Shown piece after piece: positions 10,343 through 57,651 of a stretch of DNA of 64,000 nt (positions are counted from its first letter, which is position 1; each line of letters starts with the position of its first letter). Made by a program: the position numbers and the translations under genes. Source of the stretch: Hydrurus foetidus (lineage: Eukaryota). The stretch covers positions 1 to 64,000 of the forward strand of contig UYFQ01000160.1 in assembly GCA_900617105.1 (NCBI GenBank). Reading direction: 5' to 3'. The notes beneath the pieces are model-generated. The model worked only from the letters and a program-made list of their open reading frames with translations, was not told the DNA's origin and searched no databases.

Positions 10343-10367
10343 GAGAAAGAAAGATAAGTGCGGGTAG
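10343..10367 (+). promoter_or_regulatory. Polypurine tract of Gypsy-2
   Basis: GAGAAAGAAAGATAAGTGCGGGTAG directly before the 3' LTR. Confidence 0.75.
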
Positions 10368-10563
10368 TGTGGCAGTTCCGGGTCCAAGGTCCCGATCCTA
10401 CCGGATAGTACTACGGTACACTATCCACTGTACACTACAGTCTGTTGTATCGTCGTAGCCACTTACAGCCTCCACGTAGAAGTTAACCCTAGCTTCTAGC
10501 TTTCCTGCTGTAACTAACTACTACTTTTAGACATCCCCTCTTCCTTACCCATCCAGAGCCACA
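10368..10563 (+). repeat. Gypsy-2 3' LTR
   Basis: TGTGGC...GCCACA perfect terminal inverted repeat; followed by TSD CTGA. Confidence 0.93.
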
Positions 10564-13700: not shown

Positions 13701-15176
13701 AAGAAGGATGTATTCAAGTTCCAGTCGCAAAATTACACAGCAAAGTCAACCATTCCATTGAAGATATTTTTGACTCCGAAGAAATTGCCAAACGGTAATA
13801 TAGACAGAATGAAGGCAAGACTTGTTGCAGGAGGACATAGACAAGACAGGTCACTGTACACAGATGTCGAGACATCATCCCCAACTGCAGCACTCTCTTC
13901 CGTCATGATGGCAGCAGCACTCTCTTCCGTCATGATGGCAGCAGCACTAGCAGCACACAGAGCAGATCACGTTATAACACTCGATCATAAGGCTGCTTAC
14001 CTGAACGCGTCGATGGTCGGGCATATAGTTGAGATGCGCCTCGGCAAAGAGGTTGCCAGTCTCCTGTGTGGTGTTGCACCTGAGCATAAGAAATTTTTGA
14101 GACAAGATGGAACGATTATCGTCAGACTTCAGAAAGCTCTTTATGGATGCATAGAGTCAGCGGTTCTCTGGTATAAAGAACTCAGCAGGACACTAATAGG
14201 ACTAGGATTCAAGAAGGACGACTATGATGAGTGCTCCTTCGTACGAAAAAGACCAAATGCGATAGACGCTATACTCGTGTACGTTGATGACCTAATGCTC
14301 ACCTCGCCATCAAAAGATATACTGTTATCCATTGCAGACGTACTTCGGAAGAAATACAAGGAGGTGACTGTAAAGGAAGGATACCAACACGACTTTCTAG
14401 GTATCCATTGGAACTTTGAAACATCTGGCCAAGGTGCCCTGTCAATGCAAGGATATGTGGATAACATATTACAAAAGTACAATGTTGTGAGAGAAGCAAA
14501 GACTCCAGCTACTGAAAGACTGTTTCAAAGTTATCCTGACTGTGTCAAGTTAGGATCAGTCAAAGTGCAGTGGTTCCATTCTTGCGTAATGGAGTTGCAT
14601 TACCTGGCCAAGAGGATCAGGGCTAATATCCTTACAGCGGTCTCCTACTGTGCAACTAGAGTCCTTTGTCCAGACAAAGACGATGAGAAGAAACTAGACC
14701 GTGTGCTGTCCTATCTGCTGTATTCAAGAGACCAGAAACTAACACTTAAAATCGGAGATCGTTTGGAAGTCCGTGCCTATGTGGACGCATCATTCGGAAC
14801 GTATAGGGGCATGAAGTCAGTTACAGGAGTAATTATAATGATTGGAGGCGCAAGCATCTATGTGAAAAGTGGTAGACAAAAGATTGTTACCAGGTCATCA
14901 ACCGAAGCTGAGCTTGTGGGACTTTCTGACGCCCTCTCGCAAATCATTTGGACACGGGAATTCCTGATAAGCCAAGGCCATCATATCGGCCCCGCGGTGG
15001 TTTTCCAAGATAATCAATCGACTATATGTCTAGTCAATCGAGGCAAGTCAATGAGTGAGCGAACCAGACATGTCAAGGTCAGGCATTTTTTCATTAGTCA
15101 CTATGTTGAGGCAAATGAAATCAAGATTGAGTACTTACCAACAGGAGAAATGGTCGCAGACCTCATGACGAAGCCA
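10772..15176 (+). mobile_element. Ty1/Copia retrotransposon Copia-A, 3' truncated; possible 5' LTR about 10772-11097
   Basis: gag remnant about 11130-11960, then integrase-RT-RNase H. Ends abruptly at DLMTKP with no 3' LTR. The LTR call rests only on a TGTTG start and a CAATA end. Confidence 0.85.
11886..15176 (+). CDS. pol: Copia-A Pol (integrase, RT, RNase H); knuckle and catalytic protease segment missing
   Basis: VDLF/SDGEG/EAAIRHIK integrase triad; KARLVAGG, LQKALYG, YVDD, YVDASF, STEAE, QDNQS, ADLMTK. In-frame 27-bp duplication AALSSVMMA. Comparison with Copia-B shows the knuckle and protease N-terminus are absent. Confidence 0.93.
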
Positions 15177-15400
15177 CCGGCCGGCCGGTTGGCCGGCCGG
15201 CCAATCGGTCAAAAACCGTACAGAACTATGAACTAGTTATAAACGTACTTAACCCCTATCATAATTGTATCAAACTCGTATTAAACACGTTGAACTGTGA
15301 TGATATGTTAGGTGGTGATTGGCCGGTCATCTTAAAGGTGACCGGCCAGGCCAGCCACCGGCCTGGCCGACCAGTCAAGCCACCGGCCACAAGCTCTAGC
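15177..15400. repeat. GGCC/CCGG-rich palindromic repeats, probably a DNA transposon end fragment
   Basis: CCGGCCGGCCGGTTGGCCGGCCGG at the Copia-A break and further GGCC arrays to about 15390; similar GGCC repeats at 10620-10665. Confidence 0.45.
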
Positions 15401-23618: not shown

Positions 23619-24134
23619 TGTGAGTTGCCACGGGTTGGCACGAAGTCGGGAGGACATATCGTGGATGCCCAAATGAAGATGGGAAGGTTTGGTTAGTAAA
23701 TTCGATTTAAGGATTAGAAACTGGCACGGAGGCCACAAAGCATAAAATCATGTTGCACATCATTTCTACCTGCCGTACAATAATAAGATCTCAATCGTCA
23801 TGCGCATGCAATTTGACTGGCTCTCGTAGATTTACATCTACGTTGTTGTATAGGCGAGATAGTATCTACTCAACTGTAAATATGACGTTTGTACTAAAAG
23901 CTAGACTTTTGGTACCAAGTACCGGATAAATACTATACAGCTGTGGTTATTATGGTGTAACAATGGCAATATACGTGATACGAATTGGCATTGAGGAAGC
24001 GACTTGGTGCACATTGCACACCAATAACAATCTACAAAATGTGTTTACTTATGATATCCTATCATGCTAATTGTTGATTATACAAATGGTAATATACAGC
24101 TATAACTAGCACTTATCGCTGTTATATACCGACA
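23619..24134 (-). repeat. Copia-2 3' LTR (516 bp)
   Basis: Near-identical to 33680-34182, with 13 extra bases near 23701. Confidence 0.96.
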
Positions 24135-24180
24135 CACCCCGTAATCATCAATTGCTTTATATTATTTTTCTTAGAAGTCA

Positions 24181-24371
24181 TCATGTCGTCTCTGATCAAA
24201 CAATCATGAGCTTATGTAACTATCTTATGTCATCTTTGATTAGACAATCATAATATTTAATCTTATTATTTACTTTATATGCATGTCATCTCTGATCAGA
24301 TAATCATGATATATTTACTTATCTTTTATTTTATTTTTGTATTCATGTCATCTCTGATCAGATAATCATGA
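24181..24371. repeat. Four 29-bp imperfect palindromic repeats with unique AT-rich spacers in the Copia-2 3' UTR
   Basis: Consensus TCATGTCATCTCTGATCAGATAATCATGA at 24181, 24225, 24281 and 24343; spacers 15, 27 and 33 bp. Confidence 0.9.
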
Positions 24372-24385
24372 TATCCAAATCTATT

Positions 24386-27300
24386 TAGTTTGACATTTTG
24401 TCACTGTGCTTTACTTTTATTATTCTCAATGATTTATCAACAATCTCATTTGTTAACTTTTCAAATACTTGTTTTGTTACTCTTTTGTTCCAATATCTGA
24501 ATTATTATCAGATGATGCTATTTTGACTAGCACACACGTTCCATCGGCATATTTTTCTTTCAGGAAATTCTCAGTTATTTCTAAGTGACGTAGTCCTCTT
24601 GTCATATGTGTAATTATTGATGCATCTACACATGCCTTATTGTCTTCTTCAATTCTCGTGGGTGCCTGTAACCAACCCATTTGGCTCAGCATTCCACGGT
24701 TTGCTATCACCTCAGCCTTAAGAGTGTGATTAACCGCTTTTATTTCAGATTCTGCTGTTGACGTTGATATGCTGCCCTGATCTGTTGAGCACCAGCATAT
24801 TAATGATGGACCTAAATATCCGAGATATGATGTCTGCGAATGTAGGTTATCAAGATTGCCTGCTAAGTCAGCATCGCATTGAAATCTTAACTGAAGAAAC
24901 TCAGTCATTGTATCAATGTCTTTGGGACCATCATGAGTCTTAAACTTTAATCTATCTGATTTTGACATTTTAACATATCTTAATAAATGTTTAGCAAATT
25001 CTATATGTCGTGGTCCAGGATTGTTACCGTATCGGGACAATACATTTAGTGCGTACATTATTGACACTAATGTATGTACCATACCATACATTAATTGACC
25101 GACAACTCTACGATATGGAAATTTGCTACACTCAGATAATTGTGCAGGAGATGCATTGTCTAATTTGGATAGACTAGTTTTGTCTAGCGGATATGGTAAT
25201 GATTCATCTTTCGCGTTTTTCATTCCAATACCGTCTATAATTTCTTCAACCATTCTTGTTTGATCCATAAAATAATTAAAGTTCTCATCACATGTGATAC
25301 GGATTCCAACAAATTCTTTATCTGAACAGTCTGTTACTTTATATTTGTGTTTATTAAAATTCTTTAGTAGGGCATCCCACTCATTTAAATCTTTCTTATC
25401 TCCAAACCAGCGAAAGTCATCGCTATGTACTATTAGAATTATTATTCTTTCTTCTTTCCATTTGTGAAATAGTTTGGGATCCCATGGAGTATTCTTGTAT
25501 CCACATTCTTTGACACACATGTCTAACTTAATACTGAAATTTCTTCCTGAATTGGGATTCCCGTATACATTTCCTAATGATTGGATGCACATTCCTTCAG
25601 GAATACTGTATCCTTCGGGAGTCTTAATGAATATTGGATATGCTTCATTTGCTCTTGTAACTAAATATGCACCTTCCAAATCTCCACCCCGCATTGTGCA
25701 TTTATAAGCAGCAGCAATAGCTACGGCTATTTTGATTGATGTTGCTGATACATTGCCACAATACACATCATTTGGATGGTAGTGGACGTATGGCTTCATT
25801 AAATCACCCCGTGCTACAAGGCGCGCTTTCAGTGTGCCATCAGTTTTGATGTTGAATAGCCACATCATTGAGACGAGTTGTTGTCCATTATATGGAACAA
25901 CTGTGAAACAATCATTTTGTCAAATTTTTCACATTCCTTGTCTATTGCAGCTTTCCAAGCTGGTATATGTACTGCTTGTTTAAAGCATTTGGGTACACGA
26001 GGATCTATTGGTACACCTAATTTTGAGTAGTGTTGTGTTTCACACATACTTAGAGCGTATTCTTCATTTCTTACATTCATATTATACCAATATACAGGAT
26101 CATTATTTTCATCTGTGTATGGCATATTGACTATATTAATATTATTCTCATTTGTGTCTTCAAAAGGAATAGGTTCATTTCTATTTTGTTCTGCTAAGAC
26201 ATCTGCTCTTTCTGGGAAATCAGGTTCGAATGTTTCTCCAGCTGGTTCAACATATGGTTGAGCCAATTCTCCCTGGAGTTCATCGGGTGCTGCTTTTCGA
26301 TGTAAGAACGGTACATAATGATCTGTGTATACGAATTCACGATCGTACGGTTCTTCATCATTTGTGTATATACTAAAGTCTATTGTTGGGTCAAATATTA
26401 CATCTTTACTTTCACGGATTCGTCCATATTTACCATTTTCATATGGAATTACGAAGTAGTTAGGAAAAAGAAGGAATGTATTTGAGTATCCACAAAACTT
26501 AGCTTTATACGCTCTTCTTGCACCTAATTTGACACGTTCAGCTAGAGGTATGAATACATAGCATGACGACCAAAAAGGTTGTAAATATTTTATATTAATT
26601 GGTTGTCCCGTTATTTTCATATATGGGGATGTTCCTATTACTTTTGAGAAATTATATGATGCTGTGTCGCAAGCATATGTCATTGCCAAATCCCAATATA
26701 TTTGAGGGACTGGATTGTCTGGGCTAAGCATTGCAACATTTGTTTTTGCTACAATTACTCCTACAGCTCTTTCAGCTACACCACCAGCATGTTTGTCTCT
26801 TGATGGTGTGCGTTCAAGTTGATATCCTTTTGAACTAACAAATGCTGAGAATTCATTTGATCTATAATTTCTTTCTGGGTCAAGTCGAATGAACCGACGA
26901 GTATCGGTATCATGGACATATTGCCATTCAGGGTGTTGATTAAATAATTTTAAACTCTGAGCACATAATTCATGAGCTGACCTATCTTTAGTATAAACCG
27001 GATAACAACGACGCGTTGCTAAATCCGTATAAATATCACAATGCTTATATCCTCTTGCGGAATAGCAATTGTGCTGGTATGCATCCAGAGAGAAACATTG
27101 TCCTGGTTTAACAGGAAGATCTCTATGTTCTCTTCTGTGATCAGTCCCAGTTTGATGCATGGTGCCATATACGCAACCTTTGCAAGGACCGCGTTGTTTA
27201 TTTGCATCTTCTTCAGTAAATTTTGCATTGGTAGAATTTTTAAATGCCATAACATTCCGATATTTCCGGGATGTCCGGTAACCATGTGTACATGGTCATA

Positions 27301-27448
27301 TAATGACACGGGTTTAAATTGTGTCAAATATAATGTTGCTGATTTATTATTTTTAAAGATTGTTTCTTTACAAACAGGAAAAGGTGCTTTTTTAACTATA
27401 TCTTCGTTCGTGACAACTTTACTGATAGATTTTTCTTCTTATTGATTC
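24386..27448 (-). CDS. pol: Copia-2 integrase copy 3, RT and RNase H
   Basis: LKARLVARG, GDLEGAYL, IVHSDD, CDADLAG, STAESE, EDNKAC, NNSDIGTK; the frame breaks fall in homopolymers. Confidence 0.92.
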
Positions 27449-29645
27449 CACGATCGTACGGTTCTTCATCATTTGTGTATATACTAAAGTCTATTGTTGG
27501 GTCAAATATTACATCTTTACTTTCACGGATTCGTCCATATTTACCATTTTCATATGGAATTACGAAGTAGTTAGGAAAAAGAAGGAATGTATTTGAGTAG
27601 CCACAAAACTTAGCTTTATACGCTCTTCTTGCACCTAATTTGACACGTTCAGCTGAGGTATGAATACATAGCATGACGACCAAAAAGGTTGTAAATATTT
27701 TATATTAATTGGTTGTCCCGTTATTTTCATATATGGGGATGTTCCTATTACTTTTGAGAAATTATACGATGCTGTGTCGCAAGCATATGTCATTGCCAAA
27801 TCCCAATATATTTGAGGGACTGGATTGTCTGGGCTAAGCATTGCGACATTTGTTTTTGCTACAATTACTCCTACAGCTCTTTCAGCTACACCACCAGCAT
27901 GTTTGTCTCTTGATGGTGTGCGTTCAAGTTGATATCCTTTTGAACTAACAAATGCTGAGAATTCATCAAGTCGAATGAACCGCCGAGTATCGGTATCATG
28001 GACATATTGCCACTCAGGGTGTTGATTAAATAATTTTAAACTCTGAGCACATAATTCATGAGCTGACCTATCCTTAGTATAAACCGGATGACAACGACGC
28101 GTTGCTAAATCCATATAAATATCACAATGCTTGTATCCTCTTGCGGAATAGCAATTGTGCTGGTATGCATCCAGAGATAAATAGTGTCCTGGTTTAACAG
28201 GAAGATCTCTATGTTCTCTTCTGTGATCAGTTCCAGTTTGATGCATGGTGCCATAAACGCAACCTTTGCAAGGACCTCGTTGTTTATTTGCATCTTCTTC
28301 AGTAAATTTTGCATTGGTAGAATTTTTTAGATGCCATAACATTCCGATATTTCCGGGATGTCCGGTAACCATGTGTACATGATCATATAATGACACGGGT
28401 TTAAATTGTGTCAAATATAATGTTGCTGATTTATTATTTTTAAAGATTGTTTCTTTACAAACAGGAAAAGGTGCTTTTTTAACTATATCTTCGTTCGTGA
28501 CAACTTTACTGATAGATTTTTCTTCTTATTGATTCCACGATCGTACGGTTCTTCATCATTTGTGTATATACTAAAGTCTATTGTTGGGTCAAATATTACA
28601 TCTTTACTTTCACGGATTCGTCCATATTTACCATTTTCATATGGAATTACGAAGTAGTTAGGAAAAAGAAGGAATGTATTTGAGTAGCCACAAAACTTAG
28701 CTTTATACGCTCTTCTTGCACCTAATTTGACACGTTCAGCTAGAGGTATGAATACATAGCATGACGACCAAAAAGGTTGTAAATATTTTATATTAATTGG
28801 TTGTCCCGTTATTTTCATATATGGGGATGTTCCTATTACTTTTGAGAAATTATACGATGCTGTGTCGCAAGCATATGTCATTGCCAAATCCCAATATATT
28901 TGAGGGACTGGATTGTCTGGGCTAAGCATTGCAACATTTGTTTTTGCTACAATTACTCCTACAGCTCTTTCAGCTACACCACCAGCATGTTTGTCTCTTG
29001 ATGGTGTGCGTTCAAGTTGATATCCTTTTGAACTAACAAATGCTGAGAATTCATTTGATCTATAATTTCTTTCGGGGTCCAGTCGAATGAAGCGCCGAGT
29101 ATCGGTATCATGTACATATTGCCACTCAGGGTGTTGATTAAATAATTTTAAACTCTGAGCACATAATTCATGAGCTGACCTATCCTTAGTGTATACCGGA
29201 TAACAACGACGCGTTGCTAAATCCGTATAAATATCACAATGCTTATATCCTCTTGCGGAATAGCAATTGTGCTGGTATGCATCCAGAGAGAAACATTGTC
29301 CTGGTTTAACAGGAAGATCTCTATGTTCTCTTCTGTGATCAGTTCCAGTTTGATGCATGGTGCCATAAACGCAACCTTTGCAAGGACCTCGTTGTTTATT
29401 TGCATCTTCTTCAGTAAATTTTGCATTGGTAGAATTTTTTAAATGCCATAACATTCCAATATTTCCGGGATGTCCGGTAACCATGTGTACATGGTCATAT
29501 AATGACACGGGTTTAAATTGTGTCAAATATAATGTTGGTGATATATTTGTTTTTATTATTGGTTCTTTATCAACAGGAGAAAGTGTTTTGTGAGCTATCT
29601 CCTCCTTACTGACAACTTTACTTATAAATTTTTCTTCATTTTGAT
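26338..29645 (-). repeat. Three tandem copies (about 1.1 kb each) of the integrase coding region
   Basis: Copies at about 28536-29645, 27449-28535 and 26338-27448 give near-identical translations; copy 2 lacks PERNYRSN. Confidence 0.95.
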
Positions 29646-32600
29646 TATATACATATACACCATTTGATATGTATCCACGAATAATCTCCACTCCTAATTT
29701 ATCTATTAATGCTAATGCTTCTCTAATAGATTCGATTGAAAAGCATCTCATTCCTTCTGATGTAAATATCACAACATTTTGTGCTCCAGATATTCCGCCA
29801 TTACATAGTTGGGAGATTGAAATTAGTGTTTCTTTCATCCCTTCCATAAGTATAATATCGAGACCTAATGGTCCATAAAGTCCTGTCGCTTTTGATTCTA
29901 TGGCGGGACCGAAAGCTGGAGTTGCTTTGATACCCTGACCATATATTATGTGACGAAGTAGTGTAGGATCAGAAGTGGCACATGTTGATGCACCAGAGTC
30001 GAATATTATTTGCCCTTGCATTTTCATTGATTTAATATTATGATTTATTCTTAGAGATTTCAATTGACTTTCTATTGGTTGAATATCAGGACTTTCATTT
30101 ATTTCATTTGATTCGTTCATATTGTCATTATCTTCAGATTCATTTAGTTTTAATCTTTTTGAATTATGTTCTTTTATTAAACTTTCAAATTTATTTTTAT
30201 ATCTGAGTTGTCTTTCTTCCAAGTTTTCATTTTCATTTTCATTTTCATCATCATCATCACTAATATCTTTTTCAAATTCTGTTATTGCATCTTTATATAC
30301 TGCAGCTTCTTCAGGTTCATTTATATTACTATCTAATTCTGGTTCTGGTTCTGGTTGATTCACATCATATCCTTTTAAGTTTCTGTATTTTCCAAGCTTC
30401 TCATAATCTACAATTCGTACACCTCCAACATATTCAATGTATTTAGGTGTATCAATACTAAATGGAGGTGATTTAATAGATTCCATTGATATTGGACTAT
30501 CAGGAATATCAACTCTATCATATGACATATCACTTGATTCATTATCACTTTGATCTGATGTATGTATATACATTGGAGACAATTCTTCAGTTGTTCTTGT
30601 TACTACATCTACATCAAAAATCGGTGATTGAGCTCTGTCATATAGGACTGTTATCATTGGTTTTTTGACGACGTCTTTTGACGATTGATGTGAGTGTATT
30701 AATTCATCTAGTTCATTTGTTAATGGTGATGACAATGTTCTTTTCACCAAGTCATTAATTGGTCTTACTAGTCTTGCTATTACTAAGAATGCATCTCTAA
30801 TTCCAAACATAACAAACGATGGATCATTTTCTTTAAGTATATCCATTTTTAGTGATCTTCTTAATAAGTCTTCTTTATCCAGATTTGAATTCTCGTGATA
30901 ATATCCAACATGTTGTCCCGCAAATGCTACAAAGTCGAATATTATTGCGTGCAAAACTGTATCAATGAATAATGTGTTATTAATTACTTCATTAAATTGT
31001 GTATATTGATCAAGACGTTTTATTACTTCCGCATATTCACTAACACAAGTCATTTGAGACCAATAGTGTCCTGGTCTCGTTGAGGGAATGTATTTTTCCG
31101 TCACCCCGTCAATACAGTATGGATTGAATTTCATAAAGTGATGAGGTCCGGCTTTTTCATCAGCAGGAGGTAGAACTATACATGCTTGTAATAATGTGGC
31201 TCCGATCTGATACATGAGGTGCATCCATTTAACTGTTGGAGTTCTTATATCCTTTCTACGTGTAGTAGATGGATTTTTATGCCACCCAAAGAGATCAGTA
31301 TATTGATTTGCTCTTTCTTGATTATCTTTAATTGTTCTTTTGTTTTTGAATAAGAAAATGTACGGAACTATTGTTGTTGCAGGATCATTTCTATTATATT
31401 CCATGACGTATAAATGAAACAAATAGTATTGTTCAGCTAACAATATTGCGGCATTTATTGCCCTTTGGGGAATAGAACATGCAGAATAATTATTTTGTAC
31501 ATTCTGGAGTAGAGATCTTTGATGACTTTTCATTTCATTTTGATTCATTTTTCCATTGTAAATTTTATTTTTATATTCTTGATTCTGCCTATCAGTTTTT
31601 ATTATTCTTTGATCATTTGGTGTTATTCGCACTCGCATTAATGTATTGTGTTTTTCTTCATTGGACTGATAAGGTGGTGCAGAAGGGTTACCCCAACTTG
31701 AGAATGCACGCACCTGATGTTCAGTTTCAGTATCTTGAGATCTCATCCAATTTAATCTTTTAATTTGCGCTTTTGAATATCCACCCCGTACACTGGGATC
31801 ACCAACCTTCGGTCCTACTGAGTCAATTTGTGCCTGACTTAAATCAAATTGTACTGACTTTTTGTAAGGAATTGTATTTGGTTGGGGTTGTTGGATTTTA
31901 TTTTCATTGTCTGGATTCATTTCATGCTTGTATTTGCATGTTGGTCTGTTACAAGTTCCTTTTTGAAATCCAAAACAATAACCACCATTCTTAACCGGTC
32001 TTTTGCTTTCTCCAGTATTGTCAGGTAAAGATCTAGCATCTTGAATTTTATTCTTGTTATTAATATCATAATTATAAGCTGGATTATATTGTTGTTGTTT
32101 ACCCGGATTTTGCGGCGGATTTGACAAGGATTGATATTGATTTAATTTTGCTTGAGACTGATTTTGAATTGTATTTTGATATAGAGAATATTCAGAGCTA
32201 CTTGACGTTTCAGGAAAAGATGTTACACTCGCCATGCGAATGACCGCTGTTTCAGGCGGCATTGCATCTGCGACTCTCAACATAATTCCCATCGACTCAT
32301 TATAACTTGTGTTATTCACGACACATGCAGCAAATGATGAAGCGATCTTAGGTCTTGGGTCAGAATCTAACCGATCTGATACCCAAGCCATTTTCTCGAC
32401 GTCAGTCATCATTCTACTCTGTGCGTGTTCTAGATTAGAGAATAATTGTTCCCATTTTGAATATTCTAATCTAAAATGAACACTTGGATTTATTTGGTAC
32501 GTGTCTAACGCTCTTCTTGCGAATTTCACGTCCTGTTGCTTTTGACCGAAGATGTAATTGATCATTTCTCGATAAGATGCAATTCCGTTTCGTAATTTTT

Positions 32601-33615
32601 GATGTATTATTGATATATTATGATGCAAAGTTTTTGAAAACATAATGTAAACTAGAGAAAATAGTCTATCATTATCATGAATATAATGGAATGCATCATC
32701 TTCTTCGAGAACTACTCTTTCGATAATTGGCTCCGATGATAGTGAGTCAATTGATTTCTCATCTTCATATTCAACTCTAGGAACTAATATAATTTTTCTA
32801 TTTGAGAACCCATGAATATTTTCGTCTGTCATTATTGGCTCGGTACGATGACCTTCAATAAGGGTAAGTAGCCCCGTTGTTGATAGTACCGAATGTATCA
32901 TTCGCAGACGGTGAAATTTGTCTGGCGTATTTATGTCAATGATATATTTTGAGATTTCTGATATTAGCACTGTTGAATTTCGTTGGTAATGTATTCGTTT
33001 GACCATCTTTTCACATGGTTTCTTCTTTGAATATTCATTATTTTGTTCTTCGTCACTACTGCTACTATCCTTATCCCAAAATTCTGATTGCTTCGGCGTT
33101 GATCCGATTTTGTTATTGTTGTTATTATTAGAGTCCTTTCGACCCTTCATTGTCGTTATTGAGGACTCGCTCGAAAAATTTTTGCGAGGGTTTCCCCCGT
33201 TATTCAATCTACTAGAAATTTTGCTACTGCTAAAAGATGATTCATCATCGGACGGCACAGGACTAGACGGACTTGACGGACGGAGGTTTGTAAGAATCGC
33301 TCTAGTCTCAGTGTTCCTAGACGAGGGTTGATCGCCTAGCGGCAGATCCACCCTTGGCGCGATGTCGATTAACCCTAGCGGGTTATCTATAATCGGGCTC
33401 TCATCTTTTAACAACTGGAGTTGAGAGATTCTTCTATCTAAAGCTGCCCGGAATTGAGGGCTTTCCTCATCGATTACAACACCGATGGGAGGCTCCTCAA
33501 TTCCTAATGCAGGAGTCAGATGAAGAATAGGTATTATAGGTTAAGGATTGGGCTGCGGTGGCTCTTCGTCTTCATCTGACGAGAATGGCCCCGGGCCTTT
33601 CCTTCCTTTTGCCAT
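28483..33615 (-). CDS. gag-pol: Copia-2 Gag-CCCH-unknown domain-protease-integrase (copy 1)
   Basis: 1643-aa ORF; in-frame ATG at 33615 with one TAA near 33542. Motifs: CFGFQKGTCNRPTCKYKH, IFDSGAS, HMVTGH...CKGC, and SLD/RLD/GVAER. Confidence 0.92.
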
Positions 33616-33670
33616 CTTTAACTTGGACGAAGGCTCTAGAAAACTATCAGCGAAGTCTTAAGGACTTCAA

Positions 33671-33679
33671 TCGCTACCA
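33671..33679 (-). promoter_or_regulatory. Primer-binding site, tRNA-iMet type
   Basis: TGGTAGCGA immediately after the 5' LTR; complementary to a ...GCUACCA tRNA end, as in initiator Met tRNA. Confidence 0.8.
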
Positions 33680-34182
33680 TGTGAGTTGCCACGGGTTGGC
33701 ACGAAGTCGGGAGGACATATCGTGGATGCCCAAATGAAGATGGGAAGGTTTGGTTAGTAAATTAGAAACTGGCACGGAGGCCACAAAGCATAAAATCATG
33801 TTGCACATCATTTCTACCTGCCGTACAATAATAAGATCTCAATCGTCATGCGCATGCAATTTGACTGGCTCTCGTAGATTTACATCTACGTTGTTGTATA
33901 GGCGAGATAGTATCTACTCAACTGTAAATATGACGTTTGTACTAAAAGCTAGACTTTTGGTACCAAGTACCGGATAAATACTATACAGCTGTGGTTATTA
34001 TGGTGTAACAATGGCAATATACGTGATACGAATTGGCATTGAGGAAGCGACTTGGTGCACATTGCACACCAATAACAATCTACAAAATGTGTTTACTTAT
34101 GATATCCTATCATGCTAATTGTTGATTATACAAATGGTAATATACAGCTATAACTAGCACTTATCGCTGTCATATACCGACA
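33680..34182 (-). repeat. Copia-2 5' LTR (503 bp)
   Basis: Near-identical to 23619-24134. Confidence 0.96.
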
Positions 34183-40686: not shown

Positions 40687-40937
40687 CACTAAAATGAAAA
40701 GCTTTCAAAATTTTAAGATGTATGGCTCGGGAGGACTGCGAGAAAGTACCCAATTATCTACAGGAGATGGAGCAAAATGAGGGATGAAAATGAGGAGATA
40801 CAGGCTATGGTGCTTTTATCAGTTTGTTTCAAAGTATGATGATGCCTGATGTCTGGGAGTGTCTCTAATTTGAATAATCAGTGTAGAGTAAATAATGTCG
40901 TCAAAATTTGGCAAAAACTTGATTTTCCCCCCTAAGG

Positions 40938-41216
40938 TGTTGTGATATCCGGATTAGACTAGGATCTTGTACCCTGTGTGATGCATGATTGTTTTCATGC
41001 ACGGGTGTACGTACATTCAGCGATAACATTGACCGCAACCCTCGCACTCATGTTATGCTACCTAGATGTAATAGACAGCATGTCACTGTCGTTTAATCCA
41101 ACTTACCGAATAGAACGTCTTCTTCTCTTTTGAGCAAGCGTTGCTAGCAGTCGGAAGTGCAGGGATCGTTTGGGAACTCGGAAGAAATTCCGTGTAATTC
41201 GCCCAGAATTCCAACA
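40938..41216 (+). repeat. Copia-C 5' LTR
   Basis: Direct repeat of 46694-46972. Confidence 0.97.
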
Positions 41217-41227
41217 TAAACGACAGT
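41217..41227 (+). promoter_or_regulatory. Non-tRNA primer-binding site complementary to LTR positions 41085-41095 (putative self-priming)
   Basis: TAAACGACAGT directly after the LTR is the exact reverse complement of ACTGTCGTTTA; no TGG. Confidence 0.75.
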
Positions 41228-41272
41228 CATCCTTAGATAGATTAGCTAGAAAGTTGCAAAAATCTTGCAAGG

Positions 41273-44200
41273 ATGAGAGGACGAGGCGATGGAAGATTCC
41301 AGTCCCGTGGCGGGGCAGGGGTCGATATGGTAGGGGGCAAGGCGAGCCCCATAAACCCATAGTAAAAGGTAGGAAGCCCGAGGTAGGTGCTTACCTGGAT
41401 CTGCCACGAGGCCAAGCGGCAGATCCGGAAGCTGTGTTGAAATGGCTTGAATGTTTAAGAGTTTATATGTATAGTACTTATGAATCTTCTGTTAAAGAAA
41501 TCATTGGTATAGATGGCGTCCTCACGATTACGAAGAATTCGTAGAGCCTGACGACCCGCCGGACAACGCCGGCATGGTTGCCATAGAGAGATGGAAGACT
41601 GCAAGTAAGAAATATGCTGCTAATATTGAATTACATAAAAAAGACTGCGCAAAATTGTATGGTGTAATATTAGGTCAGATGTCGGAGGCCTCAATCACGA
41701 GGGTGAACGAGATGCCGGCAGGCAAGCGAGCCATGGAGGACTGTGATCCTCTAGAGGTGTTGACATGTGTGGTTGCAACACACATGAACAACAAAAGGTA
41801 TGGAGATGTATATAATATGACTACAGCAATTAGAAACTTTTATAATAATAAAATGTATCAGAACGAAGATCTAGCTGCATACTTTAGTAGGTGCAGGACG
41901 CTTCTGTTTGTCAAGAGCGAGTCATACAGGATCGCCGACGAAGAAGAGCCCTTCACACAGATGAGTTCCATGCTGTATTATTTGTAACTGGACTTAATTC
42001 AAACTATTCAGAATATATAAATACGTTTAAAAATAAGGTTCGGCCATGGCCGCAGACCATGGCTGATGCCAACCAGGACGCGGCCAACTTCCTCATGGGA
42101 AGGCCCGTCCACGGAGGAGCTCCCCCGAACTCGGAGAAGCGAAACGTTTTCGCGGCCAGTCGGGGTGGGAGAGCGGGTTCCGGTGGGAGAGGCGGCAGAG
42201 GCCGCGGAGGCAGCAGTCAGGAAGCTGAGAAGGGAGGGTACGATACCCCCGGCAGCGAGAGCAGAGTGAGGGCAGGCACTCCCTATAGGGATAGGGAGGC
42301 CACCCCACAGAGAGAGAGAGGTGGTGCCGTACAGGAGTACGGTACCCGTTACGGAGCCTGCAACAACTGCGGGGAGGAGGGCCACTATGCGTACGAGTGT
42401 AAGAAGCCCCCGAGGAAGAACGCACCTGCGCGTCACACTTCCTCGGAAAAGTAAGTCCCTTATATGTATTTTTACCTGATTCACTAGCTACGGATGTAAA
42501 TGTTCCGTGTGGGGAAACCGGACTGCATGACGTATTTGCAACGTCGACCGGTTACCCTGCGTTTGTGCCATTGTTAGATAAAGCATGCAGATTGGAGAAT
42601 TTTTGTCCACTGAACAGTAAAAATTGTGGGGGTGACCCTGTGATTTTTAGTGCGAATGTATATACACACAGTTCCACATTTACAGAGAGACAAGTGTTGT
42701 TAGATACATGTGCAGCAGAGTCAGTATTTTGTAGTGGAGATTTATTTTATAGTATTATGCCGTCCGCTACCCCGATGATTATTAATGGAGTGAACCCTCA
42801 GGGGAACCCTTGATAATCACGGAGTGTGGCGAGACGGACTTCGGAACAGTTTACTACGATAGCAATTGTATAGCAAATATATTATCCTTCGGTAACATAG
42901 TCAGCTCGAGCGAGTCAGTTAGCTATGACAGTGACCAGGATTGTTACAAAGTTAGGATGATTAAGTTAGGACCTGTATATAGATTTGTCCATGATCAGTC
43001 TACGAACATATATCTATGCGACTTAGACAGAAATGTCAGTTACAAGAATGTATCGTTCGATAAATCGATCATGGTCATGACAGTTAAGGATAAGAAGAAA
43101 CTGTATACAGCTAGACAAGTTAAGTCAGCAGAGTTAGCTAGAGAGTATCAGAGAAAGTTAGGTTACGCCAGCCCAGGACAGTTAATTAAATTAATAGGTC
43201 AGGGGAAATTAGATAAGAGTGACATAACAGCACAAGATGTAGTTAGAGCATTAGATATTTTTGGACCAGATTTGGGTTCCCTTAAGGGGAAAACAACTAG
43301 TCACAAAACTGAGTTAGAGGAAGAGATGCCAGTTGTAGATAGGCAGTTCCTGAACCAGGTTATGTACATAGATTTGATGTTTGTGAACTCGATACCCTAT
43401 TTAGTCACAGTTACAAATCCCTTAGAATATGTGATGATATGTAAACTCTCACGTAAAAACAAGTCTTCCTTATGGATGAACTTAGAGAGCAACATACATC
43501 ACATTACTAAGTATGGATTTAAGATAACTATGATAAGAATAGACGGAGAGTCGGCAGTTAACACTATAAGTTTTGAGAGTAAGCTAGCCGCACTAGGTAT
43601 TATATTAGACAGTACTGGAGCAGGAGAAGCAGTAGCTGTAGTTGAGAGGAAGATCAGAGTGATCAAGGAACGTGTTCGTGCCATCATCAACACGGTACCT
43701 TTTTCACTGAGTGAGCTACTAGAAAGTTGGTTACTTAGATATGTTGTGAACAGATTAAATTTAGTACCAACTAGAAACAGTGTAGCTTACGTCAGCCCCA
43801 GAGAGAAATTATACGGTAGAAAGATTAACGTAGATAAGGAGTTGAAACACGGTTTCGGTGATTACGTACAAGTACATACCGACTCCGTGGACAACTCGAC
43901 TAAACCCAGATCACAGGCAGCAATAGCATTAGTTAGTGCAGGCAACCTAGAAGGGTCATGGTATTATCTGCTGTTAGCTAACTTAAAAGTAGTGAAGAGG
44001 ACAAAGGCCACTAGCCTACCCATGACAGATGATGTGATCAGTTACCTCGATAAGTTAGCATCTGAGAGGAAATTAAATATGTCAGTGAATGTCAAGCAAC
44101 CTATTTTCGAACAGAGTAATCAAATCCTCGAAGACGATGGAAATGATTACTCCAACGATGAATTTGAGTTGCAGACACCTGACATGATAACACCGTATAG

Positions 44201-46182
44201 TTACCCTACAGAAGACGAATTTGTGCATCATGAGATAGCAAATAATTTTGACTCATACGATGGCAATTCTGATGTAGCTTACGAATCAGAGTTCGAACAA
44301 TTAACAGAATACATACCAAATGATATATACGTTAATGAAGGAGAGGATGTAGTGTATGACGATACACCAACTGACCCCGATGCATTAATGAATGATATAT
44401 TTGGTGTAGACAGTGATGATGAGGTAGATACCCCCACCACAGAAAATAGCAAGTCAGAGGAAATTCTAGATAAACAACCCAGACGTAGTGCTAGAAACCA
44501 TCAGCCAGGCAGATGGAACAAGAGATTAGTAGGTTTAAGTATACCTAGCTACAAAGATTCAGTCATGTGTAAGTACATGATGAACATGACCGTAACAGAA
44601 GGAGTACAGAAATTAGGCGAGATAGCCGTAGATTCCATTAAAAAGAGTTACAACAGATGTGTGATAAGAATGTGTGGGAGGCAGTTCACCTCAACAGTCT
44701 TAGTTACAATCAGAGGAAAAGTATCATAACCAGCAGTATGTTTTAAAAGATAAGTATACAGCAGATGGTAAATTTGATAAGCTAAAATCTAGACTTGTAG
44801 CAGGAGGTCACTTACAAGATAGAAATATATATGATAACGGTTCATCACCAACTGTTAGCACCACTAGCGTATTTATTGTTGCTGCAATTGCTGCTAGTGA
44901 AAATCGAGCGGTCGCTACGATCGATTTTCCTGGTGCATTCCTCAACAGTGATATGCCACTAGACGGTGACCATGCAGTGCTGATGAGACTGAATAAATAT
45001 TTGACTAACATATTAGTTAGCATTGACAAGTCCTATCAGAAGTATGTAAATGAGAAAGGAACAGTAGTAGTTAAGCTTAAGAAAGCATTATATGGATGTG
45101 TAGAGTCAGCTAAGTTATGGTACGATAAAATATCATCAGACTTAACACAGTTAGGCTATAAGGTAAATCCATCAGACATATGTGTATTCAATAGGACTGA
45201 GCTAGATTCCACTCAGACTACTTTAGTTATCCATGTTGATGATATGATGATCAGCAGTAGGGATGAGAAGCGTATAGATAGTATAATTTCAGAGATAGAA
45301 AACCTATACCCAGGCCTGACTAAGAGTAGAGGCAGAGTGTTGAATTATATAGGTATGACTTTTAACTTTGAGCAGTTAGGCAGAGTTGTCATATCCATGG
45401 AAGGTTTCATAAAAGACTTGTTAGACGATTGCATAGAGATTGTGGGGGTGTCTAGAACACCTGCCGACGATAATCTATTCAAGATCGATCTTAACAGTCC
45501 TTTATTGAAAGATAAAGAACGTGAGAGATTCCACTCACTAACAGCTAAGTTGTTATATTTAAGTAAGAGAACCAGACCAGACATACTGACATGTATAGCA
45601 TATCTAACTAAAAGAGTCTTAGAACCTAGAACCGACGACTGGAATAAGTTAGCGCATACTATACGGTATATCAGAGAGACCAGAGCTATGCCGCTGACCC
45701 TAGAGGTAGATACTCCGGTTAAGGTTATAGCCTATATAGATGCATCATACGCTGTACATGCAGATAAGAAGAGTCACACTGGCTGTATTATAACACTAGG
45801 TAAGGGAGCAATATATGGTAAGAGTTCCACTCAGAAATTAAATACTACGTCTAGCACAGAGGCAGAACTAGTAGCTATGACTGAAGCAGGTAATCAGGTT
45901 TTATGGACTAGGAATTTCCTTATCCATCAAGAGTATGAGGTAGGTCCAGCTTTAATTTACCAAGATAACCTATCCACAATTCAGTTAGTTAAGAACGGTA
46001 GGTCCAACAGTGAAAGAACTAGACACATAGACATCAAGTTTTTCTTCCTGCATGACCGAATTAAATCAGACCATATTATTGTAACCTACAAGAGTACTAA
46101 AGAAATGATTGCAGATTTGCTGACCAAGCCACTGCAGGGGAAGCTATTCCAAGAGCTACGTGACCAAGTGCTCAATGTATAA
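41273..46182 (+). CDS. gag-pol: Copia-C Gag-Pol polyprotein (broken by several -1 shifts, mostly in homopolymers)
   Basis: Knuckle CNNCGEEGHYAYEC; protease LLDTCA; integrase IDLM/IDGE/VERKIR; KSRLVAGG, LKKALYG, IHVDD, YIDASY, STEAE, QDNLS, ADLLTKPL. Confidence 0.95.
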
Positions 46183-46693
46183 AGAAATTCAGGGGAGTTA
46201 TTTATTGATTTTGACTTACCCACTTATAGCGCTTTTTCCAGATAAATTACAAAATAAAAATAAAAATCTGATTTCGCTTTAAATCAACATTTGTTTGATA
46301 GGACCGCGAGGGACATCGATGCACCGCTTTTGCGACATCGAATGTCGACGTTTTAGCGGATTTAAGGGCACCAACATCGGTTGGATCGAACTCGAGACCG
46401 GTCACCAGCTGAGGCTTTTTTGACGGTTTAGAAATAGTTTTTCTCGAGTAATACTTACCCGCTAATCCAACCACCCATGTTTTATTTTACACCATATCAC
46501 GACGCAACTTGTCAATATTAAAAAATTCCGTGAAAAATATTTTTAAGAAAATTTACTGTTTACCATACCCTAACACTAAGTTCCCTATCTGAGTGTTGTG
46601 TGAAACATTATGAACAATAACCAATAAGTATACTATATAAGCATATGCTAATTAACATATTCACTTATTCAAACAATAACCATCATGGGGGTG

Positions 46694-46972
46694 TGTTGTG
46701 ATATCCGGATTAGACTAGGATCTTGTACCCTGTGTGATGCATGATTGTTTTCATGCACGGGTGTACGTACATTCAGCGATAACATTGACCGCAACCCTCG
46801 CACTCATGTTATGCTACCTAGATGTAATAGACAGCACGTCACTGTCGTTTAATCCAACTTACCGAATAGAACGTCTTCTTCTCTTTTGAGCAAGCGTTGC
46901 TAGCAGTCGGAAGTGCAGGGATCGTTTGGGAACTCGAAAGAAATTCCGTGTAATTCGCCCAGAATTCCAACA
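46694..46972 (+). repeat. Copia-C 3' LTR
   Basis: Direct repeat of 40938-41216. Confidence 0.97.
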
Positions 46973-47202
46973 TAAGGTCGGTCCATAATATGGTAAAACG
47001 AAATACGAAATACAAATCAACTAAAAGTCCATTTTTGTACTTCGTATTTCGTCCAGTCACGTTTGTTATGATACGACGAAATACAAAATTAATCGTTTTT
47101 GTAGTTCGTATGGTTGTCGTTCCGTATGCAATTTCGAAATACTAAACACCAATCTGAGTCAGCTGTCGACAATACTCGTAGTCATTATTATATTATTCAA
47201 AC

Positions 47203-49166: not shown

Positions 49167-50601
49167 TTACTCTTTCATTTTGCCTGTTCTTGAAGGCCAT
49201 ACTATATCTTTAACTGCCCACCTCCTATGAAAACTAGTTACTAATTTGTCTCTAAAATCTTTATTTCTCATTCTTAATATTTTATAAGTATTTTCTTCTC
49301 CACTTTTTTTAAAGTTTTCTATTTCTTCTTCTCGGTTGTCCAAAAGATTATTACATAAATCATTGCCTCGGGCAAAATTTGAAGTATCAAGTTCTCTGAT
49401 ATCACATCCATCTCTAACTCTACGAAATATAAGAGGGGCATAAGTTTCAACATCACCTACGGCATGCCACCCTAATTCACCTTCAAAAGGACTTGGTATA
49501 CCTTTTTTCCACTTCTTGTCTAATCCATCAATATTAAGTAACATGTTGTGTAGGGCACAGCAAGTAAACCAAATGTTATCAGCAGCTTCGATCCCATGAA
49601 CTCTGATTCCTGATTTTAAAATTCTCCATCTCCCTATGAATATAGTAATTATATATTAAACATATTAACGAATATATTAAAAGAATTATTATCAATTACC
49701 TTTTAGTATTCCAAAGGTGCATTCAACGTCTTTTCTCATAGACTCGGCCCATTTGGACCAACGCTGTTCTTTCTTCGACTGTGAATGTTTGAAGGGACAT
49801 ATAAGTGTGGGCCAATTTAAATATCCCCCATCCACAAGGATCCAGGCCCCAGTATAATTTACATCTTTCCCCTCGCTATCTTTCAGTGTAAATTTATGAT
49901 CATTCAAGTAATTACCATTCTGCATGTCAGTCACAAATCCATCAAATCGCACTATAGTCATATCATTCCATCTTCCGGGATATCCAACTGTTGACGCAAT
50001 AATCTGGCGTCGATGATTGGCCACGATTTGGAATGCACGCGTCGTATGAGAACTTTTCCCTCCTAAATTCTGATTCTTAAGCTTGTAGTGGCACCTCTCC
50101 AATATGATATGTGTAACATCCGCTGACCCAATACACCCATCAAAACCAGCCTCAGCATATTCAGACATACAGTCTTCTATCTCCTCAGGAGTTTCCGGCC
50201 TCTTCACCCACTTGGGATAGAGATGTTTGCGGCAGGCTACAACGAATACTTTGAAGAATCGACGATGTACTTCTTCAGAGACGCTTGTAGCCTCGTAGAG
50301 GTCATCGAAAGTCCAGCCCCTTCCCAGGTAACGCAGTGCTCCCAAAATCAATATGCTTCTTATTCAGTGGTAGATCAGGGAATCTGACGTATCTGCGATA
50401 CCAATCTGACTCAAAGCAGTCATTAGGATTGTATCCTTCGTTATTTCTGTTACGAAAGGGCATTTTCTTTGGTGGAACTGGTTCGGCAGCCTCGTTTTCT
50501 TCTAATAGCTCATCGCGCCTCTTCTTAAAGATGACATAACTTTCCAAATCTGGATACCCATCCTCACCAATGCAGTCCTGAAGTTTTGGTGACTTTTCCA
50601 T
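49167..50601 (-). CDS. Harbinger DDE transposase with a 66-bp intron (49634-49699) and an apparent deletion/frameshift near 50352
   Basis: LRYLGRGWTFDDL, GCIGSADVTH, GRWND, LVDGGY and RKDVECTFGILKG|RWRILK joined across a GT-AG intron. Confidence 0.92.
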
Positions 50602-52951: not shown

Positions 52952-53267
52952 CAAGGGTAGAAATTGAACCAAATGTGTTGGCTTGCATTGATTTGATACG
53001 GCTGATGATATTGGACGGCGATATTGCAACGCTACACACTCTTCACTCATTCTGCTGTACATACTGTACATATTGACATCACCTATATCCGACATATGAG
53101 TCCAGAGTCCATAGAGTCGTTACACTGATGCATGTTACTCTGGCCTCTGTCCATACAACTATTCTCTAACGTTCGGTCTGTTCTTTATTTCATGTCATTG
53201 AAGAATCGTTCTGTAGGCAGCAATCTTCATCGGATTTCGTCAGGTTTAGCGCAACTTGATAAGTGCA

Positions 53268-56200
53268 ATGGGTGCTACAGTGCTTTTGCTGTCCCTATTC
53301 ATCTTTTCCGTGGTGAAACTTCGTGATGGTTACATACTCAGAACAAAGTTCGCCTACAGTGGGGTTAACATCAGATTGACGGATCGTCACATGGGAGGTA
53401 TTGCTGCGCAGGCGAATGATGTCGGAACTCCAGACGCGATTGATGGATTACTACATGAATTCGATCGCCAATTAAGCAATGAAGACTTCGATGCACAGGC
53501 CATCTCTCGCCTTCATATGGACGTAATCCTGACACTTGTAAAAAGCGATGTGCAGGACAGGGATGATGACGATGGCTCAGAGAGTCACCTGTTTCCGCAG
53601 TCTTATTTGACAGCGTTGATATATATGGTTGACCTAACAAATTCTTTACGAGAGAGAAAGAGCCCTCTATTCACATCAGCCAACATGATATCGAAGAAGG
53701 AAGGTATAGCACAGGTTTTAAAATCCGTCAAATCCATGAAAGATCAACTAATGAGCTCTAGAGAAATCGTGGAGGTTAAACGCAAAACGGAGAGAGTTTT
53801 ATCTCAGCTGCTAACTCTTTCAATTGCGTACAACAGCTGTTTCATGATCGGAACAGAGACAGATTTCATGTTTTTCGCAAAGGCTCTGTTAGAGAAAACT
53901 CCAATTCATGACAAGCATTTTGCGCTCCTGCTCTTTAGCCGCGGGATTATGACGCCGCCACATCGTTCTGGCACAAGCGCAAAGATCACCTGGCCTGGAC
54001 GCGGTGAATCATTTAACGACTTGGCAGCTGTTGCCAGACTTTCGTCAATTAGTCTGAGTAGATCTTTCAAAATGAATATGGCTGATTTGGGAATCTCGCA
54101 GCCAAGCCTTTCAGCGAGGATGCTTTATCCATTCGCATCAGTCGCTATGAGAGCGTTCGTGGCGAGTTCAACGAAGACAATCACCCCAAAACGGAAGAGC
54201 GATGATTGGTTTTCGTATGATTCCAGTAGATCTGATGATAGTGAGGAATTGACATCGGAAAAACTATTCGATGATGCTGATAAGAAGCTGTGTCTTCTGC
54301 TTCAGGCCTGCATAATCGAAGATACTCATGCGGAGAAGCTGCGGGAGATGACTGGATCGGGGGATGAAGTCCTCTCTACATTAAGACGGTGCGCACTCGA
54401 CCCATATTCTCTTGGGAAGTGTTGGTGCAGGCTTGATTAATGAATGTTCTGTATTTTGCATCACGTATCATAGGTGGATTTGCGACCTTGCTGCTACTCA
54501 CTTCATGAATGACGAAGACGGCCTATTCAGCACTCGAGACGGTTTACCTGAAGAGATAAAGAAGAACACAGTAGCAATGGGTGAGGCGATGTCCTCATCC
54601 GCCTCTTAATCCCTCTAATGGCCACTCATACGCCTTCAATTTCATTTCTCAATCCCACCTCAACTCCACTCCACTCGACTCCACCAAGTTGAACTCACAT
54701 AAAGCATATACGTACGTTTTTGACCCTAGAGCTGTTATGCACCGAGAGGGCTTTCTGCGAGGGCAAGAAAAGGGACAGAACAAGATTTTTATCACTCTTT
54801 GAGGAGATAGGCAATTATCTAGAAGTGCTTTCTTCACTCCGAGAAAGCAGAAATCAAATCGATATGGAGCCTTCCGCTCTGCCACTTGCTCCCAACTCAA
54901 AGTTCACATTTAGAGTGAAGAAAACAGTAGCTGCTATCAGTGCCACTAAATTCCTTCCTCGGACTCATAAGTTGAGAGTGGGCATGGAGAATGGAGGAGT
55001 GAACTCGTTCATGGGGGCTTACAACGCGCATAAGAAAGAAGCCGCCCTCTCTGCTCTTAGGGAAAAGAGACCATCCAGTCTGGCAGATCAGGGAGCCGTT
55101 TTAGCTGTCGATGACGACATGTGGGCTACTGCGACTCCCTCTACAAGGACAGGCAGCAGTCGCTCCTCTGTCTCCTCACAGACACAGACACAAGCGGTGT
55201 CTAAGATGAGCTCTCAGGCTCAGGTGTCCGATGATGACGATGACATGTGGGCGTCAGCATCTCCGAAAGAGTTGGGAAAGCAAAAGAGGGCGAAAAAGGC
55301 ATTGGAGAGTGCACCAGTACCTGTAGACTTCGACTTGATCCCTCAGGTAGACCAGTATCTGCTGCAGATCATAGCTGACGTATTGAAGGTCGATGAGGCC
55401 GTTGTCATGCAGCCGCATGTGAGGGACGAAGTGGACTACGTGTTCAGCACTTGGCGCAGACCGCATCTCCTCCTTGACTACCACAGGATGCACTCATCAA
55501 CACCGGATATTCAGAATAATTTCAGAAGGTAATATATGCTCTCTATGAGACGACAACTATCTCCCAAGTATTCAGCGCGCTCGTGATTCTGTATTGAATT
55601 GTATTGTGTGATTTCCACGCGCAGATTTCTTAGCGCTTTGTTCGGTGTAAGTGGTGAGACAGTTGAAGACATCAGGTGAGGGCACAAAGCACGTATACTG
55701 GAAAGACAACCTACTGATTATCTCAAATCTAACACTTGATTTGATTACACTTGATTCTACTACAGGTATACCGATCCCGGTAACAGGAGACACTTCGACT
55801 TACTGCCTCCGGAGCTAGCGGCTAGATGGATAGAAGGGGTAGCTAGAAACGGAGAAATACTGCCAGGTAGTGGTCTATGACTCATCACGTACATTGCTCC
55901 CTAATGCACTGGGTTTCTGGAGAGATACTTCAACAGTGCCCAACAGAGTCGCTCTATTCTATCTAATTAAGCGTATGCTTTCTAATTTGTCGGTTGTTGT
56001 TCACTCAACCGTAGGTTACTGTGACCCCCAGACCCTCTTTATGATCGGAGAGGACTCCAACACTTGCATGGGAATAAGGGCGAGACAAAAGGGTTCCAAC
56101 AGGGGTCTCCTCTCCATGCTTCTACACGGCAACTGTCGCATAATAGGGTCCAAGGACTCTCACGGCAGGCTCACTGCAAGAGCCGTTTCGAGACTTCTTG

Positions 56201-57651
56201 TGGACGATATTACAGGCCTGCCTGTGCTTTACGTGGAGTCGCCATATGGGAGCATAGACGAAGACAGCTACGTTGAGGTGATGCCCTCTGATGCAATACA
56301 ATGCAATAAAAAGCGTTACACTGCTATAGAGTACTCCATATTGCCACATACTCTTCTCTCGCTAGTTACCTTTCCGAAATTTCATGACGTCTCTTATTTC
56401 TGCCATTACTGCGATGAACAGGTCTACGATCAAGCTGCTTTGCTAGGTGATTTACTGCAAGTCCCAGTCATCTATGCCTCTCCTCCCTCACCCACACTGT
56501 ACGTAATGGGCGACAGGGAAATCTCTGCTGTGCACTCAAATACAAATCGACAAATCAGCAATTATGAAATTGCTGATTGGATGGTAGAAGAGGACGAAGA
56601 AGAAGAGGAGGAGGGAATGGATAGTATCAGCTCTTCTCTGCCTCAGGTACAAATACAAGTGGAAAAGACACTCTTCGGGAATCTGTCTGACTACACTGTC
56701 ATGGCCAGCCATGTGTGGATTGACGGAATCAGAGACCCATCTTCAGGCAGGTACCTACCAGGCCACACACCCTTTCTCTACATCATCAAGAAGCCCCCTC
56801 TTGGAGCGGGCATCAAGGAGAAGGAGGAGGGAGCGCTTACCATGGGGGGGAGACCCCTGGGGTCACTCGAGAGTATGGTCGCTAAAGGTCTCACCAAGCT
56901 GCAGCCCGCAGCGACCAAGCCATCTGAGGAGAAGGAGAAGGAGAAGAAGAGTAAGGATAGTGTTGAGACGATATTAACTGCACAGTTTGAGCAGACAGCT
57001 GGTGCGGGGATTGCTCGCACTGCTGCTGCTGCTGCTGCTGCTGCTGCATCTATGTCTATGACTGCACCTGCAATCTCAGATGACAGTGATGAGGCGGAAG
57101 ATGAAGACGATTTCTTTGGTGTCGCCTCCACAATGACAGCGTACAAAAGGCGCCCTGTGCAGAAGTTCTCTACTGCTGCTGCTGTGAGTGCTACGGACTC
57201 TTCCTCCTCCTCCGTGCCACTACCCTCCCCTAAAGCATCTCAGAATGCGATAAAAGGTGAGGAAGCGGTAGAAGTAGCGGTGGCTGTTGAGCCTCCTACA
57301 GCCGAAGAAATAGAGGACAAAAGGAAGTCCAAGAAGCAGCGAGTAGTGTCTGTGCAGGCCCGACTAGCGGAGAGGCAGCGCTTCCTCTCCGAGGCTCAGC
57401 AGAGAAGACAGACAGCCACTAGCGAGATCAACAAGGAGAAGGAGCAGCAGGTCATGGAGTATCAGCTACGCAAGGGCTACCAACTTAGCCGCACACCTTC
57501 TACTCAAGAGGCATCCCCCGCCAGAGATAGAGATATGGAGAGAGACCGCAGAGAGAGTAAAGGCAACGTGGCTGATGTCGTTACCTTTACCCCTACCGTA
57601 GTTGTTGAGTCAGATGATGATGACGATGACTCGGATGGACTGTGGGCCTAG
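53268..57651 (+). CDS. Large multi-exon gene of unknown function with N-terminal signal peptide and low-complexity tail
   Basis: Long ORFs 53256-54440, 54720-55532 and 55870-57651 with plausible GT-AG introns between and within them; hydrophobic N-terminus MGATVLLLSLFIFSVV; conserved-looking core near 56014-56270. Confidence 0.8.

Follow-up and report, generated by a model that had tools for sequence, protein, structure and literature searches.

Structure of the retrotransposon

The Copia LTR retrotransposon described here occupies positions 40938-46972 on the + strand of the window, i.e., the whole stretch of 64,000 nucleotides that was analysed, and is bounded by two LTRs of 279 nt each with the termini TGTTG...CAACA (Table 1). 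These termini, together with the TAAGG duplication, place the point where the 5' LTR ends at 41216; because TAA follows both LTRs, the direct repeat is 3 nt longer than the LTR. The element has the traits of the Ty1/copia group, namely LTRs of the TG...CA type, a 5-bp target-site duplication and the pol order protease-integrase-RT-RNase H, which confirms the Copia domain order given in the initial annotation. The RT scores 79.2 bits against the RVT_2 profile (cut-off 31.6), and all four acidic residues of the RNase H are present in pol. No chromodomain was matched in the four ORFs of the element that were scanned, and the RT profile matched no solved structure. The element had also been called young. 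This description holds for the LTRs, which show two differences in 279 nt; the coding region, however, contains six frame changes in comparison with four relatives, caused by either decay or sequencing error, and the young LTRs therefore do not make this copy an active one.

The gag stop lies within a GTAAGT donor-like site, which is followed 140 nt further on by a CAG acceptor-like site (42451-42590). The stop itself is common to the relatives P0121 and P0126; the donor-like site is not seen at the gag stops of L015 and L017. Either splicing or a frameshift may serve to express pol. The purine tract preceding the 3' LTR is very short and in many relatives ends with GTG ahead of TGTT.

Table 1. 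Features of the focal Copia element and its flanks.
Feature	Position	Strand	Basis or remark
Left target-site duplication TAAGG	40933..40937	+	sequence
5' LTR, 279 nt, TGTTG...CAACA	40938..41216	+	2 differences vs 3' LTR (41081, 41181)
Initiator-like TCACT, A at 41085; predicted transcription start 41085 or 41086	41083..41087	+	sequence, inferred
Predicted self-primer, exact complement of PBS	41085..41095	+	paired with a mean probability of 0.96 in the leader fold
Segment with potential for pretzel-like pairing to 41229-41234 and to 41209-41215 (not significant)	41161..41175	+	
CGGAA-GAAA-TTCCG hairpin, incidental	41179..41192	+	shuffles of R-U5
Predicted primer-binding site (PBS), adjoins terminal CA, without TGG	41217..41227	+	sequence
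gag, RGG-rich ends, CCHC knuckle, three frame changes	41273..42454	+	terminal stop common to relatives
pol: protease, integrase, RT (RVT_2), RNase H; three frame changes	42600..46182, start approximate	+	
Short purine tract GGGGGTG preceding 3' LTR, similar in relatives	46687..46693	+	
3' LTR	46694..46972	+	
Right target-site duplication TAAGG	46973..46977	+	

The LTR-PBS complement and the folded leader

The initial annotation had reported that the 11 nt directly after the 5' LTR (TAAACGACAGT, 41217-41227) are the exact reverse complement of positions 41085-41095 within the LTR, and this could be confirmed. Pairing halts on both sides as described: 11 nt are matched, the 12th fails and the flanking bases are unpaired. 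TGG is absent from 41217-41240, and the LTR arm begins at the A of the TCACT motif, both in agreement with the earlier reading. By composition, the chance expectation of such an 11-mer match within the LTR is 1e-4, and none of 60 dinucleotide shuffles reached 11 nt.

The leader (41085-41240) folds with the LTR-PBS duplex as its outer helix (z -2.93; one of 200 shuffles was as good). The CGGAA-GAAA-TTCCG hairpin, to which attention had been drawn, is present, but it proved to be ordinary: a 5-bp hairpin occurs in 46% of 2000 R-U5 shuffles, the real R-U5 region contains three, and the CGGAA stem includes a position (41181) at which the two LTRs differ. As such hairpins are common in R-U5 shuffles, it was rejected as a meaningful feature.

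In Tf1, priming requires two helices that flank the primer duplex, resulting in a three-helix 'pretzel' (PMC10085805). The focal element can form a pretzel-like version with helices of 6 and 7 bp (p 0.23 and 0.10 in two nulls). Across the 34 families described below, a simple scoring, which irregular helices may escape, revealed no enrichment of such structures (Fisher p 0.82 and 0.93) and no candidate at all in 4 of the 34. Under the scoring used, the pretzel is thus not supported as a feature of the lineage.

Relatives of the element

Relatives were searched with an RT-RNase H alignment built from the focal element and 47 of at least 120 homologues, which yielded 14 loci in genome contigs and 78 in metagenome contigs (the best 80 of at least 533 confirmed stretches). 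In the 92 loci gathered among the matches listed, RT-RNase H is 37-58% identical to the focal query. A single integrase query against metagenome contigs gave 66 pattern matches and the RT alignment against viral contigs 18, none of which were confirmed. To obtain a 5' anchor independent of any repeat, a gag profile was made from 25 of 109 homologues and the corresponding piece of the focal element. A usable gag match was found in 55 of the 92 loci; 8 were dropped for having less than 450 nt upstream, and the 47 testable loci represent 44 families at <80% RT identity among the matches listed. Some loci lie on collapsed contigs that have a terminal repeat; here, the two ends were joined to read the junction. 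In a FastTree phylogeny of 91 rows, from which L012, L013 and L014 were left out as too short, the focal element groups with L017, L028, L015, L001 and L016 with 99% support.

The best-scoring relatives are almost all derived from environmental assemblies, and one listed homologue is from EukProt. Atlas cluster labels are mixed and based on one to three members each, one of the three clusters shown being Bacillariophyta with three members. Given the environmental relatives and the EukProt homologue, next to these mixed labels, the Copia lineage of the focal element is apparently a protist one. L001-L014 are eukaryotic Copia elements filed within bacterial genome bins, a placement that is probably due to contamination; L011 also carries a eukaryotic large-subunit rRNA (8501-9487). 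At L017, L042 and L088, element copies are arranged head-to-tail with periods of 5646, 5261 and 5358, respectively, which reflects either an assembly artefact or tandem insertion as in Tf1 (PMC11042837).

Covariation of the PBS and the LTR arm

Covariation of the PBS with its LTR partner had been proposed as a check. It was carried out on the 44 families: in a range reaching from 450 nt before to 150 nt after the estimated start of gag, perfect complements were sought that begin immediately behind a CA and pair with a segment further upstream, and the longest was taken for each family. The covariation is strong. Among the matches listed, a CA-anchored perfect match into the own LTR of at least 11 nt is kept in 33 of the 44 families, of at least 10 nt in 37 and of at least 9 nt in 41, counts that are not independent trials because the families share ancestry. 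As nulls, 2640 shuffles gave 6 cases that reached 11 nt and 150 coding windows gave 1, and 35 of the 44 listed families beat all 60 of their own shuffles. Without the CA anchor, the best inverted repeat measures at least 11 nt in 38 of these 44 families, and CA stands at its start in 35 of the 38 compared to a background of 20%. The position of the LTR end could be placed independently in L003, whose LTR copies diverge exactly at the CA preceding the PBS.

The 33 relatives and the focal element, 34 families in total, have 32 distinct first 11-mers with a mean identity of 40% and a GC content of 16%, and none of these sites starts with TGG. Each PBS pairs with its own LTR over 11-19 nt; pairing of at least 10 nt between the PBS of one family and the LTR of another is found in 5 of 1122 pairs, and the focal PBS pairs with the LTRs of other families over 7 nt at most. 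Seven of the 11 positions at the start of the PBS show all four pair types. Between the focal element and L017, the 11-nt duplex is kept despite three double changes among the 11 pairs, and the arms of L058 and L077 (83% RT identity) differ from each other, with lengths of 19 and 21 nt, and are both perfect. Across the lineage, arm length ranges from 9 to 21 nt.

Eleven of the 44 families among the matches listed remained below 11 nt in the preset test, and L090 contains a mismatch. L015 and L016, which besides L017 are the closest testable relatives among these matches, have 9 nt only, a length also reached by 2 of 60 and 5 of 60 shuffles, respectively. The three families below 9 nt could be explained post hoc: the LTR of L014 ends with CAATA and is followed by a 14-nt match, and in L075 and L086 the junction lies beyond the search range, with matches of 10 and 13 nt. 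With the LTR after pol as a second anchor, 45 loci were examined, 14 of which had at least 300 nt; a match of at least 11 nt was found in 3 of the 14, and LTRs at this position need no PBS after them.

Predicted transcription start

The LTR arm starts at a YCA motif in 25 of the 34 families, compared to 6% of LTR positions. In 16 of the 34 families, pairing begins with the A of this motif, and in 12 the A sits immediately before the duplex; its state flips between the close relatives L072 and L082. Oomycete initiators have the sequence YCAYTYY (PMC3599244), and in a diatom initiator consensus, TCAH(+1)W, transcription begins one base past the A (PMC4686930). Accordingly, transcription of the focal element is predicted to start at 41085 or 41086. 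In 18 of the 34 families, the nucleotide that follows the LTR arm pairs with the terminal A of the LTR (T background 32%, p 0.009), and the primer may sometimes extend one base into the LTR.

Probable self-priming and alternative explanations

Judging from sequence, the focal Copia lineage is likely to prime reverse transcription in a Tf1-like manner, the initial nucleotides of its own RNA taking the place of a tRNA. The 5' end of a transcript starting at 41085 or 41086 would fold back onto the PBS. By analogy with Tf1, the RNase H of the element would then cut just past the paired stretch, thereby freeing a 3'-OH primer from which minus-strand strong-stop DNA would be synthesized. In the established steps of reverse transcription, the copied primer supplies the PBS at second-strand transfer. 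Through copying of the self-primer into the plus strand, the PBS would thus be restored from the RNA 5' end, and this recopying would hold both arms to strict Watson-Crick pairing even as their letters change. In Tf1, the RNA's initial 11 bases pair with the PBS, and the cut by RNase H falls between bases 11 and 12 (PMC7175516); the primer is copied into the cDNA's 3' end (PMC11042837).

The same RNA 5' end could also be released otherwise than that of Tf1, by a host nuclease or by self-cleavage, or it could be supplied in trans from the second genome copy in the particle. The lack of pretzel enrichment in the 34 families and the AT-rich arms of 9-21 nt, compared to a fixed 11 nt in Tf1, are compatible with such a route; however, the acidic residues of the RNase H are present, the intramolecular LTR-PBS duplex is predicted at >0.8 in 33 of the 34 families, and no Rfam ribozyme family matched the focal element or 20 relatives, with one chance snoRNA hit in pol (E 0.41). 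We regard release by a route other than that of Tf1 as unlikely. The duplex might, on the other hand, be a conserved leader structure that functions in translation control, packaging or dimerisation, with something else acting as primer. The focal leader indeed folds better than 199 of 200 shuffles, and in the fungal GalEa Copia elements a conserved hairpin replaces the PBS and the priming model is unknown (PMC5445492). This explanation is nevertheless quite improbable: the arms start at the LTR end and at an initiator-like motif, both of which are landmarks of priming, in 29 of the 34 families the perfect run comes as close as a single base to a CA or closer, and an extension by G-U pairs is found in only 1 of the 34, a set selected for perfect runs of at least 11 nt, although structural helices tolerate wobble.

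It is very improbable that the PBS binds a host tRNA, a half-tRNA or another cellular RNA and that the LTR match is a coincidence. Half-tRNA priming occurs in several Copia lineages, such as Osser, Bryco and Bianca (PMC6317226), but here the diverse sites of the 34 families are 84% AT, none begins with TGG and each matches its own LTR and not those of others. Furthermore, another Copia element in the window, with 21% RT identity to the focal element, has a tRNA-type junction in which CA is followed by TGG. No tRNA genes were found in the window or in the 60 of the 92 loci that were scanned.

Comparison with known systems

The self-priming reading of the initial annotation is well supported by the covariation, but the premise attached to it, that self-priming is known only from the Tf1/sushi group of Gypsy elements, was wrong. 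In TAR, a plant Ty1/copia lineage, 89% of 203 elements were predicted to self-prime by Neumann et al. 2019 (PMC6317226), and self-priming had been proposed even earlier for Houba and Osr-1 (PMC6317226). In view of the TAR prediction, the claim to a first case in Copia fails. The TAR elements resemble the focal element in their Copia order and 5-bp TSD, and the focal complement also falls within the definition used in that study (an LTR complement of at least 10 nt starting 0-5 bp past the LTR; PMC6317226). As differences, TAR elements were described from plants, whereas the best-scoring relatives of the focal element, among the matches listed, are almost all environmental, and the focal RT reaches no more than 79 bits on RVT_2.

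In Tf1/Tf2 of S. pombe and the Tf1/sushi group of Ty3/gypsy chromoviruses, with Tj1 and Tcn1, the PBS adjoins the LTR and complements a segment of the 5' LTR as in the focal element, and the complement of Tf1 has the same length of 11 nt as that of the focal copy. Tf1/sushi elements, however, have the Ty3/gypsy order and a chromodomain, whereas the focal element, for which no chromodomain was matched, has the Copia order and thus stands outside this group. Moreover, Tf1 has a fixed 11-nt arm and needs the pretzel, whereas the arms of the focal lineage vary from 9 to 21 nt and the pretzel is not enriched. Its RT motifs may resemble those of the diatom CoDi Ty1/copia elements, which are likely to be the nearest described group. 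The primer type of CoDi is not given in the accessible text of Maumus et al. 2009 (PMC2806351), and CoDi-I carries a chromodomain (PMC5348765), for which the focal element gave no match. The GalEa elements likewise belong to Copia and have no tRNA PBS (Donnart et al. 2017, PMC5445492); both arms of their hairpin follow the LTR, the sequence is conserved and no complement was found in the LTR (PMC5445492). In the focal lineage, by contrast, the partner arm lies within the LTR and the letters drift. No report on self-priming in Copia elements of diatoms or other stramenopiles was found in the literature covered, which left subscription journals and Repbase/GyDB notes mostly outside.

New here are the lineage, the long, AT-rich primer of variable length and what appears to be the absence of a pretzel; the mechanism itself is known and has already been predicted in Copia. 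On balance, we lean towards the view that these elements form a large and old protist clade within Copia, in which self-priming is independent of both Tf1/sushi and plant TAR and uses a capped, AT-rich piece of 9-21 nt of the element's own RNA and no pretzel. If so, this would be the third origin of self-priming among LTR elements, and the RNase H of Copia would have to locate its cut in duplexes of any sequence and of variable length. Alternatively, if the clade were deep-branching, it would be a relic of the tRNA-free priming that Benachenhou et al. 2013 (PMC3601003) proposed as ancestral. Up to now, tRNA-free priming has been demonstrated experimentally in Tf1, a Gypsy element, and predicted in one plant Copia lineage. 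A second large Copia clade, in which dozens of primer-PBS pairs are compensated by natural changes, provides sequence-level support for self-priming in Copia, and it suggests that a fixed primer length (9-21 nt here) and the pretzel may be dispensable. It also bears on the question of whether tRNA priming or self-priming came first. The covarying pairs also predict the start and cut sites to the base. As these elements are without a tRNA-type PBS, annotation based on the PBS would miss them.

Other elements in the window

Several further elements are found in the window. A decayed Gypsy element lies at 4716-10563; at CA sites near its 5' LTR end, there is neither a self-complement of more than 4 nt nor a TGG. 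The Copia element at 11327-15210 belongs to the same broad clade as the focal element (RT-RH identity 39%), but it is without LTRs and thus offers no junction to examine. Three long open frames of 396, 279 and 602 aa at 53250-57651 had no Pfam match. A fragment of a PIF/Harbinger-type transposase (Plant_tran, DDE_Tnp_4) is located at 49692-50363 on the - strand. The Copia element with the tRNA-type junction, which lies near 33679, extends over 23619-34160 on the - strand and has within it three copies of a 1.1-kb unit (26333-29646).
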